This document shows, piece by piece, positions 45,001-51,000 of a stretch of DNA of 64,000 bases (its first letter is position 1; the number at the start of each line of letters is the position of its first letter). Position numbers: made by a program. This DNA comes from Bdellovibrionales bacterium (lineage in GTDB: Bacteria; Bdellovibrionota; Bdellovibrionia; Bdellovibrionales; UBA1609). The stretch spans positions 1-64,000 of the forward strand of contig OZ244719.1 of NCBI GenBank assembly GCA_965219095.1, read 5' to 3'.

Positions 45001-48000
45001 AAACTCACCCAAGGGTGAAGGTTTTTTATCCAAAACTCTAAGGGTTGTGATACTTCACCTTTTAAATTGATATAACGAACAGGGGTCATAAGACCAAAGA
45101 TCACTCCTGCTATAGTGCTATGAACCCCGCTTTTTGCAAAAAAAGCCCAAGATACTAAAGCTAAAAGAAAGTACACAAACTTGTTCGATACTCCTAGCTT
45201 TCGTAAAATAAACATAAAAAGAAAAATCACAATTGCTCCCCCTAAAGCCTGACTAGCGATGGCTTCCGTGTAAAACAAAGCTATAACCAAAATTGCTCCT
45301 AAATCATCCACAATAGCTAAAGCCAAAAGAAACACTTTTGCTGAAAAAGGTACTCTTTTGATCACAAGAGATAGAACCCCCACTGCAAAAGCAATGTCTG
45401 TAGCCATAGGAATACCCCAACCATTCTGAGAGTTTGTGCCAAAATTAAAAGCTGTATATATAAGAGCAGGAACGATCATTCCCCCAAGGGCTGCAAAAAT
45501 AGGAAAACTAGCATTTTTAACATTCGACAACTCTCCTTCTACAAGTTCTCTTTTGATTTCCAATCCCACAACAAAAAAGAAAATCACCATAAGAGCATCA
45601 TTAACAAACTGATGAAGGGTAAACTTTAAAACAAAAAAATCATATTCTAAAACTAAAGGCCAATGAAGAAAGTGTTCAAAAGTTTCACCAACACTTGAGT
45701 TTCTTAAAAAAATAGCCACTACAGACATAAACAATAAGACTATTCCACCTGAAATCTCTAGGTGAAAAAATTTTTCTAAAGGCTTTATTAATTTCTGAGT
45801 CATCCGCTTCATAACCTTAATGTATCACAAGAATAAATAAAGAGAACTCTTTAACTTCCACTATCTAGTCGAATGTGAAAAATGCATAAACAGCTAAAAA
45901 CACTTGTTTTTTTGTAATTTTTGCATGAAAATAATTGCAAGGAAATGGAAAAACAGATAAAAAACCTTGCAAAACAGAAAGGAAAAAAGATGAGGCCAAA
46001 AGACATGTTCATCACACAAAAGAGAAGCCCTCTTGATTTTAGAGTAAACGACATTGTTCATAAGAAGCATCCGCTTGTCATTTTAGCTAATAAAATAGAC
46101 TGGGATCGTTTTGATAAAGTTTTTGGTTCGAAGTATGATGAAAAAAAAGGTCGTCCAGGTCTTTCAACTCGTTTAATGGTGGGACTTCAGTGCTTGAAAT
46201 ACATTTATAATTTAAGTGACGAGAAGACAATAGAAATGTTCAAAGAGAGTCCTCAATGGCAGTATTTTTGTGGCCAGCCTATTCTTATGAAGATCCCTGT
46301 AATAGAAGTTCATTGACTAACTGGAGAAAGAGGATGGGGGCTTAGAAGATAGAAGTTCTCTTAGAGGAAACCATTGATTTAGCTTTGAGAGAGGATTTTG
46401 TAAAAAAAAAAGAGTTTGAGAATGTAGTTGTTGATACAACTGTTCAAGAGAAAGCAATAGCTTTTCCTACAGACAGCCGTCTTTATTACAAAGCTTTGAA
46501 GACTTTCGGTAAATAGAAAAAGCAAGTCATTTTAACTATTTTTCATTGTTTCACAGGCTACTTTTTCACATAGGACTAAATTAAAGTTTGGGTACAGTCT
46601 TAAAAATAAGAAAATTTTTCCCAAACAATTTTTAAAAAAACCTCTAAAGAAAAGATTAATTTTCATGAAAAGACCAAATGTCTTTTCATTCATAAATAAT
46701 AATCTTTTTTTTTCTTAAGCTCTTAATCTTTAAAAGTCCCCTTCTTATAAGCATGAGGATTGATTTTAAGAGTCCACTTTCTGTAATTTTTATTGATCGT
46801 TTCAATATCAGCAGGCTCCTGAACAGGACCCACATGAATGGTCAACCTTCCTGGTCTAGGAAAGCTTCCTTTGGGCATGATTTTATTGTTACCCTCAATA
46901 TACAGAAAAAGAATAGGAGTCCCTGTTTTTAGTGAAAAAAGACTAACTCCTTTTTTAAACTCTTGAACATAACCATCGGAAGAACGTCCTCCCTCAGGAA
47001 ATAAAATCAGCCATATACGTTTTAACTTCGTTAAAAGTTCAATGCAAAGATAAATGGCTTCTTGCTTTTTATCCTTACGATCAATCGGCACAGCTCCTAA
47101 GCAATGAGAGGAAAAGAACACAAAAAGTGGATTTCTAAACCAATAGTCTTTTGCCGCCGCAATGTAAAGATTAAGCCAGTACCTCATAGGAACAGCGGCC
47201 GCAATAGAAATCGCATCAATATGACTAGCATGATTGGAAATTACAATCAGCTTCGGATGTTCTTTATAAACATCTTTAATACTCCCTTTAACTTTTAAAA
47301 AAATATATAATTTAAAAACAGTCTTTAGAAAAAAAGCCCATAAAACTCTAAAAATAAAGCTTGTGAAATCAAAAGCACGTGTAAACAAAGGTAAGTGCTT
47401 TAAATGTGAGGGAAGCTTCTTCCATTGTTCGTTTTCATAATTCCAATGATTCATAACCTAAAATCACAAGCTTTTAAAAGATGGTAAGTTCATAGATATA
47501 AAAAACAAAAGGTCCTACAAAAATAAGTTTGTCCATGCGATCAATAATATCATCTCTTCCTAAAATAAAAATCCCTGTATCTTTCATATTCAAATCTCTA
47601 CGAATGACCGTTAGCAAAAGATCTCCTAGAAGACTTAAAAGTGCAATGATAAAACCAATAAAAATAACATAGTCTTGGAGGCGAAAGGGCAGTATATTCG
47701 TTAAAAAATAAGACATAATGCCTGATGAAAGTAAAGCCATTAAAATTCCTGGGAAAGTAATTTTTCTACTAATTTTTGAAAATAAAAAGCCTTTTTTTAC
47801 AAAATGACTTGTTACTAGACAGGAAACCTCTGCTATCTCTGCAATAATGAGCGTAAAGATACAAAAAAAGAAACCATCTTCAAAATACACAATACGAGCT
47901 AGATGAAGAGGTGCCCAGGCGAAAAAGAGGAAGCCAAAAAGACACAAACCCATATACTGGATCATATTTTGATAATCATTTTTTAAAAGAGGTATCAATG

Positions 48001-51000
48001 AAGTACTAGCTAGAAAGATCATTGGAGATAAATTATAATAATCGTAATGTTCTTTATAAATGATCCAAAATAAAAATCCTATGAAAAAATAGGTCATAAG
48101 AACAAAAATATGACGGTGATACATCCCCACCATCTGAAAAAATTTCTTACATGTATATACACTAAACAAGCACAGTAAAAATAAAATGAAAATTTCATTT
48201 TTAATACTAAAAAGTAAAAACAAAATAGGAACTAGAAATATCCACGTTCGTACACTAGCCCATAACAGTTTCGTATAAGAGTACTCCTCATGAAAACGAT
48301 ACACAGCCAAAGCAGTTGCAATGATCAAAACCATAACTTGAAAAAAGGTCTTTGTATAAAGGGGATCACCCCACATGGAATCTTGAAATAACACTAATAT
48401 ATTATTTTATAGTACTTTAGCTTTTTGTAAAGGGTGGCTCTTGATAAACCTAAGACTCTTTGAACCTCATCTAAGGCTTTATACTTATACACACAAGATC
48501 GAATGACCTCTTTTTCATACTCTTTGACCATAGAATTCAAATTTTGATAAGAAGAAGGGCCTGAAAAGCTATTATAGGGATATAAGAAAGGCTCTACATC
48601 CTCTCTTTCAATGACAGGAAGCAAAGTATAACAAAGAAGATTTTCACTCACTTTCTTAAGCTCCCTTACATTTCCAGGCCAATTGTACTCCTTAAGACAC
48701 AAAAGAGCTTCTTTGCTCAAAGTTTTTTTACGTTTTTTAGTATCTTGAGAAAAAAAGAGTTCTACAAGAGACTCAATATCCTCTTTTCTATCTCTTAGAG
48801 GAGGAAGCTCTATGGTCTTGCACCTTAGACGCCACAAAAGATCAGCCCTAAACTCCCCTTTTTTGACTTTTTGAGTTAAACATTCATTTGTAGCTGCTAA
48901 AATACGACATTCCACTTTTTGAACCTTTGAACTCCCTATAGCCCTCACTTCTTGATTTTCTAAAAATCTAAGAAGTTTTGCTTGAGAGCTAAGAGAAAGG
49001 GCTTCAATCTCATCTAAAAACAAATCCCCTCTATGAGCTTTTAAAACTAAACCTTCATGATCTCGATCCGCTCCTGTAAAAGCTCCTTTTTTATAACCAA
49101 ACATCTGACTTTCAAACAAACTTTCGCTTAAACCTGCCACATTAACGCAAACAAAGGGCTTATGAGGAGAAGATAGAAGCTGAGCTACAATCTCTTTTCC
49201 CGCACCACTTTCCCCTTCAATAAGAAGAGGACCTTTTTCATCCTTTAAACAAGAGATTTGTTTTTTGATCTTTTGGGATAAAACACCCCTTCCTCTCCAC
49301 AAACAACTTTCTTTCTGAAACTCCCACCAAGACTCTATTCTATTAAGAACCAACAAAAACTCCTCTCTTTGAAGAGGTACTTGGAAAACATGGAAAGCCC
49401 CCCTATCAAGTGCTCTTCTCATAAGTTTTACTTGAGGTAATTTAAAAACCACAATTACCTCAGAAAGAGGATGAATTTTTTTCAAAAATGATATCTGTTT
49501 CAAATCTTTCTCACAGCTTATTTCTAAGAGAAAAATAGGTGCTTTTTGAGGAAAGTATCTTAAAACAGCACCTCTTAAAAACCCTTCCATAAAAGCCTCA
49601 ATCTTTAGGTTTTTAATTTTTAATGTCACTTTATAAGATTCTAGCCTCTGCTTCATAGATGTAGTAGTTATAGACAAAAAGAGTTACAGTAAAATAAATT
49701 GGACATTTTTAATAAAATATGGTACTAGGAGTCATGAAAATTTTGCTGACAGAAAACATTCACTCTATAGCACAACAGAGATTAGAAAAAGAAGGCTATG
49801 TGGTTGAAACAAAAAACCAGGCCCTATCTGAAAATGAACTTATAGAGAAACTTCCTCATTATGATGCTCTAGGCATTCGTTCTAAGACCTCCATCACACC
49901 TCAAGTTTTAGAAGCCTCTCAAGAAAAACTCAAAGTCATCGGAGCTTTTTGTATTGGAGTGAATCAAATTGATTTACAGAAAACTCAATCCATGGGAGTT
50001 CCCGTTTTCAATGCTCCTTACAACAATACAAGAAGTGTTTCTGAAATTGTCATAGCACAAATCATATCCTTAAGCCGACGTCTAGGAGATTACAACATGA
50101 AAACCCATAACAAAAAGTGGGAAAAGAGTTCAAAACACTCTCATGAAGTTAGAAATAAAATTTTAGGCATTATAGGTTATGGTCATATCGGCTCCCAAGT
50201 AAGCATTTTAGCAGAAAGTTTAGGCCTTAAGGTAATTTTCTATGATATCAATAAGAAATTACCATTAGGAAGAGCACAGCCCACAAATTCTTTAAAACAA
50301 CTTTTAGAAAAATCTGATTTTGTAACACTCCATGTCCCCGAAGATAAAAGCACCAAACATATGATCAACAAAGACACTCTTTCTTATATGAAAAAAGGTT
50401 CTTATTTATTAAATAATAGCCGTGGATCTGTTGTCAATTTAAAAGACCTCTTAGACTTTCTTGAAAAAGAATGCCTATTAGGTGTAGCTTTAGACGTCTA
50501 TGAAACAGAACCTGCTTCTAACAAAGAAGATTTTCACTGCATCCTACAAGGTCTTGAAAATGTCATCCTCACACCCCATATAGCAGGAAACACAGAAGAG
50601 GCTCAAGAGTCTATTGCAAAAGAGATGTCAGAAAATTTTATCAACTTTCTTAAAAACGGTACCACTTTAGGAGCTGTAAATTTTCCCCAAGTCAAAGCTC
50701 CTGAAAAAAAAGGTATGAGAATTTTAAACCTACACAAAAACATCTCTGGGGTCTTAGGTGAAATCAACAACATCATTTCAGAGGCCAAGCTCAACATCTT
50801 AACCCAAACCTTAGAAACTGACCATCAAGTAGGTTACTTAGTCCTAGATTTAGAGTGTAAGAGAATTGATCCCCAAGTCATTGAAAAGATTAAAAATCTC
50901 CCTGCTTCTCTAAAAACCTGCCTTGTGAAAAATTCTTAGCTCATCATTTTTTGAACAAATTTTTCAATTTTCTCTAGAAAAAAAACTTTTTCTGTATTAT

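Follow-up and report, generated by a model that had tools for sequence, protein, structure and literature searches.

How do members of the order Bdellovibrionales begin a phospholipid? Membrane synthesis is committed at the first acylation of glycerol-3-phosphate (G3P), for which reviews name no bacterial enzymes other than PlsB or PlsX/PlsY (PMC13691511). Apart from a few PlsB-like proteins described below, the whole order, the model predator Bdellovibrio bacteriovorus included, is without PlsB or PlsX/PlsY. Here we analyze an acyltransferase gene, g00049, and its surroundings in the window, by which we mean the whole stretch of 64,000 nucleotides of a Bdellovibrionales genome.

The known first-step enzymes are missing

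In a sample of 201 order genomes (at least 85% complete, G000 included), PlsX and the GpsA C-domain were each found in 0/201, and no full-length PlsY was seen; there were two partial PlsY matches, one of them over the cut-off and covering 38/164 positions at a contig end. Over the cut-off, 4/201 genomes, all of family f3, have a PlsB-like GPAT_C protein (about 600 aa). The first-pass annotation had described PlsB, PlsX, PlsY and GpsA as absent across the order, which stands except for these four PlsB-like proteins. The genome that carries the window encodes FabH/D/F/AcpP, CdsA, PssA, PgsA, Psd, PgpA, GlpK and GlpD, and gave no tblastn match (E<=1e-3) to E. coli PlsB, PlsX, PlsY, GpsA or DgkA and none to home-built PlsX and PlsY profiles. 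The sole match of a PlsB profile was the window acyltransferase gene (E 0.003), and rpmF adjoins fabH, with a gap of 23 nt, at the usual plsX site. The gap in the first step of membrane-lipid synthesis is real, and the earlier conclusion that another route to phosphatidic acid must exist holds. GpsA is likewise absent from G354 and G303, which do have PlsXY, so its loss is a separate matter and we rejected it as part of the same event.

At the level of the phylum, PlsB, PlsY and a g00049 orthologue are all lacking in 36/221 genomes; either our searches overlook something or there are additional routes. The control genomes of B. thetaiotaomicron and C. glutamicum likewise gave no PlsY or GPAT_C match. 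Our literature search, which takes in few subscription papers, turned up no account of the gap, nor any paper that names Bd2895, Bd2894 or Bd1844 in its text. In iCH457, the metabolic model of B. bacteriovorus, the first step is covered by PlsX/PlsY reactions that have no gene and by genes of low confidence; Bd0438 and Bd1667 are assigned to G3PAT.

A PlsC-fold acyltransferase beside a CdsA-like gene

Table 1. Genes of the locus and other acyltransferase genes discussed (C2, a second contig)
Feature	Position	Strand	Remarks
g00049, stand-alone PlsC-fold acyltransferase	46723..47454	-	243 aa; PF01553 E 7.5e-19; candidate acyl-ACP:glycerol-3-phosphate acyltransferase
g00050, CdsA-like CTP_transf_1 membrane protein	47474..48376 (ATG) or 47474..48394 (GTG)	-	E 3.3e-20
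sigma-54 activator	48394..49677	-	stop overlaps GTG of CdsA-like gene; conserved upstream neighbour, 66/80 loci
SerA-type D-2-hydroxyacid dehydrogenase	49719..50939	+	divergent neighbour, 67/80 loci
LplT-acyltransferase fusion, 3' part	62828..64000	-	645 aa, reaches contig position 64765; rival route (lysolipid salvage), not found across the whole order
PlsC-group acyltransferase	C2:569085-569846		inferred Bd1844/RS05215
MGAT/DAGAT-like acyltransferase	C2:2235044-2235856		fourth PF01553 gene of the genome; omitted from the first-pass annotation

The pair exists as first described: a PF01553 gene (68 bits, cut-off 23) and a CTP_transf_1 gene (domain score 73.5 bits, cut-off 24) separated by 19 nt (Table 1). 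Their adjacency, previously seen in 12/12 loci, extends to 77/80 named loci, and the other three are interrupted by contig ends. In reduced genomes the serA-type gene directly adjoins the acyltransferase.

The g00049 protein contains the motifs NHASHID (H75, D80), AKDYWF and FPEGGRS. The HX4D and PEGxRS hallmarks of the GPAT/AGPAT superfamily are present throughout the family (NHxSHxD in 79/80 loci, PEGxRS in 80/80). The EGGRS of g00049 is idiosyncratic, and we rejected it as a mark of the PlsB type: the family consensus is FPEGTRS, found in 74/80 loci. The structure model (pLDDT 82.8) predicts an alpha/beta acyltransferase fold, for which the closest match, as for the sequence, is PlsC (5kym; Z 15.8, rmsd 3.4 over 195 residues, 26% identity) and not a GPAT (squash 1iuq; Z 14.4, 16% identity over the catalytic domain). 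At 243 aa the protein is shorter than PlsB (at least 600 aa) and than the ATS1/chlamydial plant-type GPATs (about 360 aa), and it has no match to GPAT_C (PF19277) or, at E<=0.1, to the GPAT_N Pfam family. It scores 56.6 bits against the PlsC model TIGR00530 (cut-off 102.95), which the PlsC group also fails to reach (82.7 and 91.5), and its second-best NCBIfam matches are Aas-type domains. In our tree the g00049 clade is separate (100/100) from the PlsC group of the same genome, which clusters with E. coli PlsC (98/90). With a phylum PlsB profile, g00049 orthologues took the top 7 places among 19 acyltransferases, all with weak scores, and the ESM Atlas returned nothing beyond the Pfam families.

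For the partner, we compared the C-terminal signature that we take to be typical of CdsA (KR...KD...HGG..DR.D) with the genome's own CdsA and with YnbB. The g00050 family departs from it: K is changed to R in 79/79 members and the His of HGG to Arg in 77/79, and the first Asp of DRxD is kept in only 7/79. The protein is possibly a second CDP-diacylglycerol synthase.

Distribution and displacement of plsX/plsY

A g00049 orthologue is present in 187/201 order genomes, which corrects the universal presence (41/41) reported from a smaller sample. All four f3 genomes with a PlsB-like protein also keep it. Among the 221 phylum genomes 56 bear an orthologue, and 0 of these have PlsY or GPAT_C over the cut-off. 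The small genomes that have lost g00049 have also lost CdsA (8/8), and 11 others (9 g23, 2 g41) keep g00049 and CdsA without the CdsA-like partner. Seven small genomes show exactly two PF01553 genes, the g00049 orthologue and one other, which was identified in six (PlsC group in five, OlsA-like in one). In G036 the orthologue is the sole PF01553 gene seen, and the CdsA-like gene is unlinked to it. Two fragmented genomes, G190 and G016, retain CdsA with no g00049 match, and GlpK is missing in 10/10 g23 genomes. G149 keeps the orthologue, CdsA and PgsA, is without the PlsC group, and has no match to GpsA, GlpK, GlpD, GlpT, Ugp, GlpQ, PgpA or Psd; its pathway may therefore be in decay or may rely on parts not yet known. 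A search of G149 for a source of G3P, or for a G1P dehydrogenase, gave no GldA-like, GlpA/D/K/T/Q or Ugp match; its aldo-keto reductase is DkgB-like.

In the distant family f30, G273, G339 and G352 have the acyltransferase/CdsA-like pair and neither PlsY nor GPAT_C; G303, G315 and G354 have PlsY and no g00049 orthologue. PlsX is present in G354 and G303 and absent from the three pair-bearing genomes, in which plsX is gone from intact rpmF-fabH loci (gaps of 89, 172 and 273 nt, with a PlsX remnant of 17/21 identical residues in G352) and plsY from its conserved site. In the tree the three acyltransferase copies group with those of G045/G022, members of the order (98/96); their identity to the G045 protein is 68-71%, compared with 44-47% for FabH. 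These comparisons indicate that the three genomes gained the pair horizontally, probably in one acquisition, seen in three MAGs, in which both genes moved together. The species tree, built from 6080 columns of 20 concatenated ORFs, of which some are probably spurious and lie in the opposite frame, places G354 within g138 at a bootstrap of only 61-66, and so is compatible with more than one sequence and number of plsX and plsY losses.

Essentiality in B. bacteriovorus

We infer that the B. bacteriovorus orthologue of g00049 is Bd2895/EP01_RS10390; the gene order serA, sigma-54 activator, cdsA-like gene, acyltransferase and MBL hydrolase agrees with locus L074. In prey-free B. bacteriovorus EP01_RS10390 had 0 transposon insertion sites in 6/6 samples (PMC6561027, Data Set S3), and the PlsC-group gene RS05215 is likewise 'ND', so the two genes do not substitute for one another. 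PssA and PgsA are also 'ND' without prey, so the CDP-DAG route runs. Insertions are tolerated in the OlsA-like (RS13475), MGAT-like (RS09585, W 1.8-2.7) and Dgk1-like (RS14055, W 1.0-1.5) genes, in the sigma-54 activator gene, and in glpK and the inferred glpD each. They are also tolerated in the CdsA-like gene, where they bring predation fitness down to 0.32-1.0. Both CdsA genes have fitness values, which suggests that they may be redundant, but values also exist for near-essential genes such as pheS. The model iCH457 files Bd2895 as AGPAT and treats it as a redundant PlsC; until now g00049 has thus passed for a surplus version of the enzyme of the second step.

Three genes had been proposed for the missing step. 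Essentiality, distribution and the f30 displacement strongly support g00049 as the key enzyme, but not the CdsA-like gene, which is dispensable (insertion-tolerant, and absent from the 11 small genomes above), nor the Dgk1-like gene (g03195). The latter abuts pssA in 12/12 loci, is present in 6/6 f30 and 4/4 PlsB-bearing f21 genomes tested, and is missing in 10/10 g23 genomes and G149; it was rejected as a bypass because its distribution does not track the gap and it tolerates insertions. The reported best match to yeast Dgk1 (E 3e-12) was not reproduced: its CTP_transf_1 match is below the cut-off, and it has no NCBIfam or PDB match.

A candidate entry to phospholipid synthesis

Taken together, fold, motifs, distribution, displacement pattern and published orthologue essentiality make it likely that g00049 is a stand-alone G3P acyltransferase using acyl-ACP, which replaces PlsX/PlsY; its reaction, acceptor, acyl donor and sn position are predictions. 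By HX4D catalysis it would acylate sn-glycerol-3-phosphate directly from the acyl-ACP of FAS II, giving lysophosphatidic acid (LPA); one enzyme would thus accomplish what PlsX and PlsY do together, with no acyl-phosphate intermediate. The PlsC group would then make phosphatidic acid, and CdsA, perhaps backed by its CdsA-like relative, CDP-DAG, from which PssA/Psd could produce PE and PgsA/PgpA PG. G3P might be supplied by GlpK, by GlpT uptake or by GlpD in reverse. Counting against this reading are the retention of g00049 in the PlsB-bearing f3 genomes, its closest match to PlsC, its persistence in G149 without a known G3P source, the missing GlpK of g23, the single PF01553 gene of G036, and CdsA in G190 and G016. 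A more far-reaching version is unlikely: that g00049 acylates DHAP, or performs both acylations alone, as a bacterial entry to ester phospholipids that can do without GpsA, PlsB, PlsX and PlsY, stems from an accessory cassette of the Arc1 type and can pass between classes by gene transfer. Both acylations by g00049 alone are conceivable because G036 shows no second acyltransferase.

The roles could also be swapped, with g00049 converting LPA to PA and a PlsC-group or other PlsC-fold protein making a lyso-intermediate first; PlsM shows that such a reversed order is possible (PMC10593935). The nearest solved structure (PlsC), the AGPAT entry in iCH457, the apparent essentiality of both genes and the retention beside PlsB agree with this. 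We nevertheless consider it rather improbable, since arrival of the pair coincides with plsX/plsY loss in f30, G149 keeps g00049 without the PlsC group, and it is the PlsC group that clusters with E. coli PlsC.

Acylation of dihydroxyacetone phosphate, followed by an unknown reductase yielding LPA, would also explain the loss of GpsA (0/201), the insertion tolerance of glpK and glpD, and G149, which has TpiA but no known G3P source. This is quite unlikely: GpsA is also missing beside PlsXY, PgsA, which G149 retains, requires G3P in any case, the sole SDR match of G149 is FabG, and no reductase moved with the pair into f30.

In Xanthomonas, PC synthesis involves acylation of glycerophosphodiesters or lysolipids. 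A similar salvage by g00049 of precursors from prey or medium, bypassing phosphatidic acid, would fit its Aas-type matches and a possible supply from peptone-yeast extract, as well as the assimilation of prey lipids by predators (PMC7529429). It is very unlikely given the joint loss of g00049 and CdsA in small genomes, the running CDP-DAG route and the replacement of PlsXY in f30. Simple re-acylation of prey lysolipids, raised earlier, also fits poorly: the acyltransferase is essential without prey, and none of the four PF01553 matches of G045 is the LplT fusion.

That the pair forms an obligate two-enzyme route, in which the CdsA-like protein has changed chemistry, e.g. on LPA or monoacylglycerol, accords with their adjacency, their co-transfer in 3/3 f30 genomes, the family-wide signature change and the lowered predation fitness; it is highly improbable, as the partner is absent from the 9 g23 and 2 g41 genomes, unlinked in G036 and insertion-tolerant, with a fitness cost that may be polar. 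A glycerol or monoacylglycerol route through the MGAT-like enzyme, whose gene many genomes have head to head with glpK, and the pssA-adjoining Dgk1-like kinase is largely refuted as the main route, since both genes tolerate insertions and are absent from G149 (which rejects the MGAT-like enzyme as an essential step) and the kinase-like gene also occurs in PlsB and PlsXY genomes.

Comparison with known systems

For g00049 as a G3P acyltransferase, mycobacterial PlsM (Rv2182c) is a precedent (PMC10593935): it is a stand-alone essential PlsC homologue with HX4D that acylates G3P in bacteria without PlsX/PlsY, but at sn-2, with acyl-CoA and together with PlsB2, whereas g00049 hosts usually have no PlsB. 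PlsC itself (T. maritima 5kym, E. coli, TIGR00530) shares size, fold and the HX4D and FPEGTRS motifs; in contrast, g00049 forms its own clade and tracks loss of first-step enzymes rather than co-occurring with them. With PlsX/PlsY, g00049 would share the net reaction (acyl-ACP + G3P to LPA), and the two are mutually exclusive in f30, although there is no homology and g00049 would act as a single enzyme. PlsB and the plant/chlamydial ATS1-type GPATs (1iuq, 1k30, 8ia1) have the same catalytic fold (Z 13.7-14.4) and the same proposed reaction (PMC5716074), but are 12-16% identical and much longer (about 360 or 600-880 aa), and carry the GPAT_C/GPAT_N domains.

Arc1 of P. aeruginosa (PA2541-36) and E. 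coli ynbA-D likewise have a CdsA-like gene directly upstream of an acyltransferase; Arc1, which includes a CDP-alcohol transferase, is an accessory cluster for defence in a genome that also has the complete core pathway (PMC8926400). In the Bdellovibrionales locus just two genes remain, one of them essential; the only PF01066 genes of this genome are PgsA and PssA, both far from the pair, and it has no YnbA match. If our reading is right, a 240-aa PlsC-sized enzyme would be the sole entry to phospholipid synthesis, able to displace PlsX/PlsY after transfer, and would offer a search image for other lineages without PlsB and PlsY as well as a functional lead for uncharacterised Arc1/ynb cassette acyltransferases. 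With a named essential gene, the gap is directly testable. In f21, cassettes that, from their gene content, we take to be Arc1-like encode acyltransferases 30-33% identical to g00049, which form its sister group in the tree (96/91).

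A gap at the first step of phospholipid synthesis

The gap at the first step of phospholipid synthesis in the order is real. Among 201 order genomes at least 85% complete, our own genome G000 included, PlsX and the GpsA C-domain were each found in none (0/201), which agrees with the first-pass annotation. Its claim that PlsY and PlsB are also absent held for PlsY, with only two partial matches in 201 (one over cut-off, lying at the end of a contig and spanning 38 of the 164 positions), but not entirely for PlsB, since GPAT_C matched five genomes, four of them over cut-off, all in family f3 and all PlsB-like proteins of about 600 aa. 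These f3 genes were possibly transferred; their products (loci L011, L012, L013 and L014) match those of family f21 in size, and two adjoin an apparent acyl-CoA dehydrogenase gene. The PlsX, GpsA, PlsY and GPAT_C searches were positive in 9, 10, 8 and 1 of 14 control genomes, respectively. Because the controls B. thetaiotaomicron and C. glutamicum had neither PlsY nor GPAT_C, gaps of this sort are not unique to the order.

G000 (3.11 Mb, two contigs, 94% complete) encodes FabH, FabD, FabF, AcpP, CdsA, PssA, Psd, PgsA, PgpA, GlpK and GlpD. In this genome tblastn with E. coli PlsB, PlsX, PlsY, GpsA and DgkA gave no match, and PlsX and PlsY profiles built from fetched relatives matched nothing; the PlsB profile built likewise had the window gene, a PlsC-fold acyltransferase, as its sole match (E 0.003). 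rpmF and fabH lie 23 nt apart with no plsX in between. Four PF01553 genes are present: the window gene, a PlsC-group gene, an LplT fusion and an MGAT/DAGAT-like gene. The last (C2:2235044-2235856) lies apart from glpK, beside an IS; in many order genomes such a gene stands head to head with glpK (L073:1719-3998).

Features of the window
Feature	Position	Strand	Remark
PF01553 acyltransferase, 243 aa	46723-47454	-	
CTP_transf_1 protein (CdsA-like partner)	47474-48376 (ATG) or 48394 (GTG)	-	19 nt upstream of acyltransferase
Sigma-54 activator			upstream of the pair
SerA-type gene	49719-50939		divergent from the pair
410-aa protein	52370-53602		signal-like N-terminus, near-identical beta-propeller repeats (PF13570, PQQ_2)
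Many transposase genes and fragments	38559-42313, 45921-46530, 57436-59546, 62312-62662		several repeated elsewhere in G000
VTT/DedA domain fused to pyridine nucleotide-disulphide oxidoreductase	59695-61827		near the LplT-acyltransferase gene

The SerA gene still adjoins the acyltransferase in reduced genomes; E. coli SerC and SerB queries found no match in G000 or in the reduced genome G149. One transposase element sits between nhaA and the acyltransferase in the window, the two being adjacent in G149. pgsA is divergent from a GlpX-type fructose-bisphosphatase gene in both genomes (C2:1176640-1178236; L268:7993-9599).

Distribution of the acyltransferase

The first-pass annotation had placed the acyltransferase in 41 of 41 genomes of the order; we matched it in 187 of 201 (E<=1e-10), at 58-72% identity among the 150 matches listed. 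The family is tight: when its profile was run against 1.84 billion representatives, some nine clusters came first, several being fragments, before the matches fell to acyltransferases, stand-alone or fused, at E 1e-40 or weaker.

Eight of the 14 genomes without it are small (1.2-1.9 Mb; genera g22 and g26, and G145), and CdsA was below cut-off or absent in all eight. G145 retains one OlsA-like gene. The other seven (G157, G175, G195, G197, G139, G171 and G189; four single-contig) have neither a PF01553 acyltransferase nor CdsA and apparently make no glycerophospholipid at all. The remaining six are assemblies of 250-790 contigs; the two examined, G190 and G016, keep CdsA and neither gene of the pair. 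This may be an assembly gap, and counts against strict co-loss until closed. Among 33 chosen genomes, seven small ones had exactly two PF01553 genes, the acyltransferase and one other (among the six compared, PlsC-group in five and OlsA-like in G149), and in G036 the acyltransferase is the sole one. OlsA-like genes are widespread in the order, which suggests ornithine lipids; G082 carries an OlsF-like acyltransferase-GNAT fusion (L083:2537-4624).

Displacement of PlsX and PlsY in family f30

In a phylum sample of 221 genomes, full-length orthologues occurred in all 53 from the order and in three of family f30, genus g138 (G273, G339 and G352; 62-63% identity), the other nine matches being at most 37% identical. 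None of these 56 genomes had PlsY or GPAT_C over cut-off. The remaining 165 had GPAT_C in 90, PlsY in 66, both in 27 and neither in 36, the last belonging to families f24, f15, part of f23 and others.

Three further f30 genomes, G303, G315 and G354, carry PlsY instead of the orthologue, and G354 shares the genus of the three carriers. In the five genomes searched, PlsX was present in G354 and G303 and absent from G273, G339 and G352. GpsA was absent from all five f30 genomes tested for it, PlsXY carriers among them. The loss of plsX is visible in synteny: rpmF-plsX-fabH of G354 and G303 is reduced in the carriers to an intact rpmF-fabH, with 89, 172 and 273 nt between the two genes, and a plsX remnant survives in G352, matching 17 of 21 residues near the PlsX C-terminus. 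plsY has gone from G339, where its two neighbours remain, and from G273 and G352 together with flanking genes. Each of the three carriers has the complete pair, in surroundings that are unrelated and share its GC. The three acyltransferases cluster together (100/99) within a group that includes G045 and G022 of the order (98/96); their identity to the G045 protein is 68-71%, compared with 44-47% for FabH. We read this pattern as a single horizontal acquisition after which plsX and plsY were lost, an event seen in MAGs, within a genus whose host tree is poorly supported.

Fold, motifs and phylogeny

In fold, the acyltransferase model (pLDDT 82.8) resembles PlsC of T. maritima (Z 15.8; rmsd 3.4 over 195 residues); plant GPATs (Z 13.7-14.4) match as well, as do tafazzin and human GPAT1 (Z 12.6). 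HX4D, AKDYxF and PEGxRS are kept in the family, and when 19 test proteins were scored with a PlsB profile its orthologues took the first 7 places, with weak scores of 6-21 bits. In a 55-row tree with several long-branched rows, all members of the family group together (100/100). Their sister group (96/91) holds the cassette and fused acyltransferases, and the PlsC, OlsA-like, MGAT-like and PlsB rows fall elsewhere. Some related acyltransferases are fused to a Methyltransf_20 domain (P0129, P0172) or are tandem doubles (P0131, P0184), candidate two-step fusions. The CdsA-like partner, possibly a second CDP-DAG synthase, retains its CTP_transf_1 domain with a CdsA signature altered family-wide.

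Essentiality and proposed reaction

The G045 orthologue is identical to B. bacteriovorus AHZ85378.1 and CAE80673.1. In the data of PMC6561027 on host-independent cells in peptone-yeast extract, the run RS10375 (serA), RS10380 (sigma-54), RS10385 (cytidylyltransferase), RS10390 (acyltransferase) and RS10395 (MBL hydrolase) has the gene order of locus L074, gene order being the basis of our locus assignments. RS10390 had no insertion sites in six of six samples and is one of 201 putative essentials; its neighbours have fitness values of 1.4-1.8, 0.32-1.0 and 2.0-2.7. In the model iCH457, as described in PMC7529429, the PlsX and PlsY reactions are gene-less, G3PAT is 'Bd0438 or Bd1667' (confidence 2), AGPAT is 'Bd0348 or Bd1844 or Bd2895' and CDP-DAG synthase is Bd2894 or Bd3786; Bd2894/Bd2895 would correspond to the pair.

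The acyltransferase is a strong candidate for the missing step. Its fold and distribution, the displacement pattern and the essentiality of the orthologue are established by the data, whereas we infer its reaction, donor and position: it probably makes LPA from acyl-ACP and G3P, and PlsC, CdsA and the head-group enzymes would then follow. Against this reading, four f3 genomes keep the acyltransferase beside a PlsB-like protein, the displacement happened once and is known from MAGs, and the reading leaves unexplained the 36 genomes of the phylum sample that have neither PlsY, GPAT_C nor this gene. A second gap, the G3P source, also tells against it: GlpK is missing in all ten g23 genomes, and the closed 1.33-Mb genome of G149 (L261-L328), which carries FAS II, the acyltransferase, CdsA and PgsA, had no match across its whole length for GpsA, GlpK, GlpD, GlpA, GlpT, Ugp, GlpQ, PgpA, PssA or Psd.

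The two acyltransferases could instead have swapped roles, which we consider unlikely; the fold cannot distinguish G3P from LPA as substrate, and the PlsC-group gene RS05215, assigned through its TIGR04552 neighbour, was scored 'ND' in PMC6561027, as were pssA and pgsA, and is absent from its Data Set S3. Slightly less likely is an acyl-DHAP route. Salvage, for which G000 has the LplT fusion, seems somewhat less probable again beside the essentiality of RS10390. That the pair is obligate is improbable: nine g23 and two g41 genomes have the acyltransferase and canonical CdsA and no CdsA-like partner. A route through MGAT and Dgk is very improbable, RS09585 (MGAT-like) and RS14055 (Dgk1-like) having fitness of about 1 or above in PMC6561027, like RS13475 (a third acyltransferase), glpK and RS12785 (putative glpD).

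Comparison with known systems

The acyltransferase is proposed to act like PlsB or PlsX/PlsY but belongs to neither. The literature searched neither described the gap nor made this assignment, though subscription papers or supplements could do so; passages of PMC13691511 and PMC5716074 name no entry enzymes beyond PlsB, PlsX/PlsY and the ATS1 type. A passage of PMC8067016 limits PlsB to Oligoflexia and names no gap; in our data PlsB-like proteins occur in four families outside the order. The nearest precedent is PlsM, described in PMC10593935 as a PlsC homologue acylating G3P at sn-2 alongside PlsB2. In gene layout the closest parallel is Arc1 (PA2541-36), which PMC8926400 treats as an accessory set of phospholipid-like genes; PA2537 overexpression is treated in PMC4086342. 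Similar Arc1/ynb-like three-enzyme cassettes (L129:4340-6992, L130, L131), with CDP-alcohol transferase, CdsA-like protein, acyltransferase and a small membrane protein, are present in PlsB-bearing f21 genomes.
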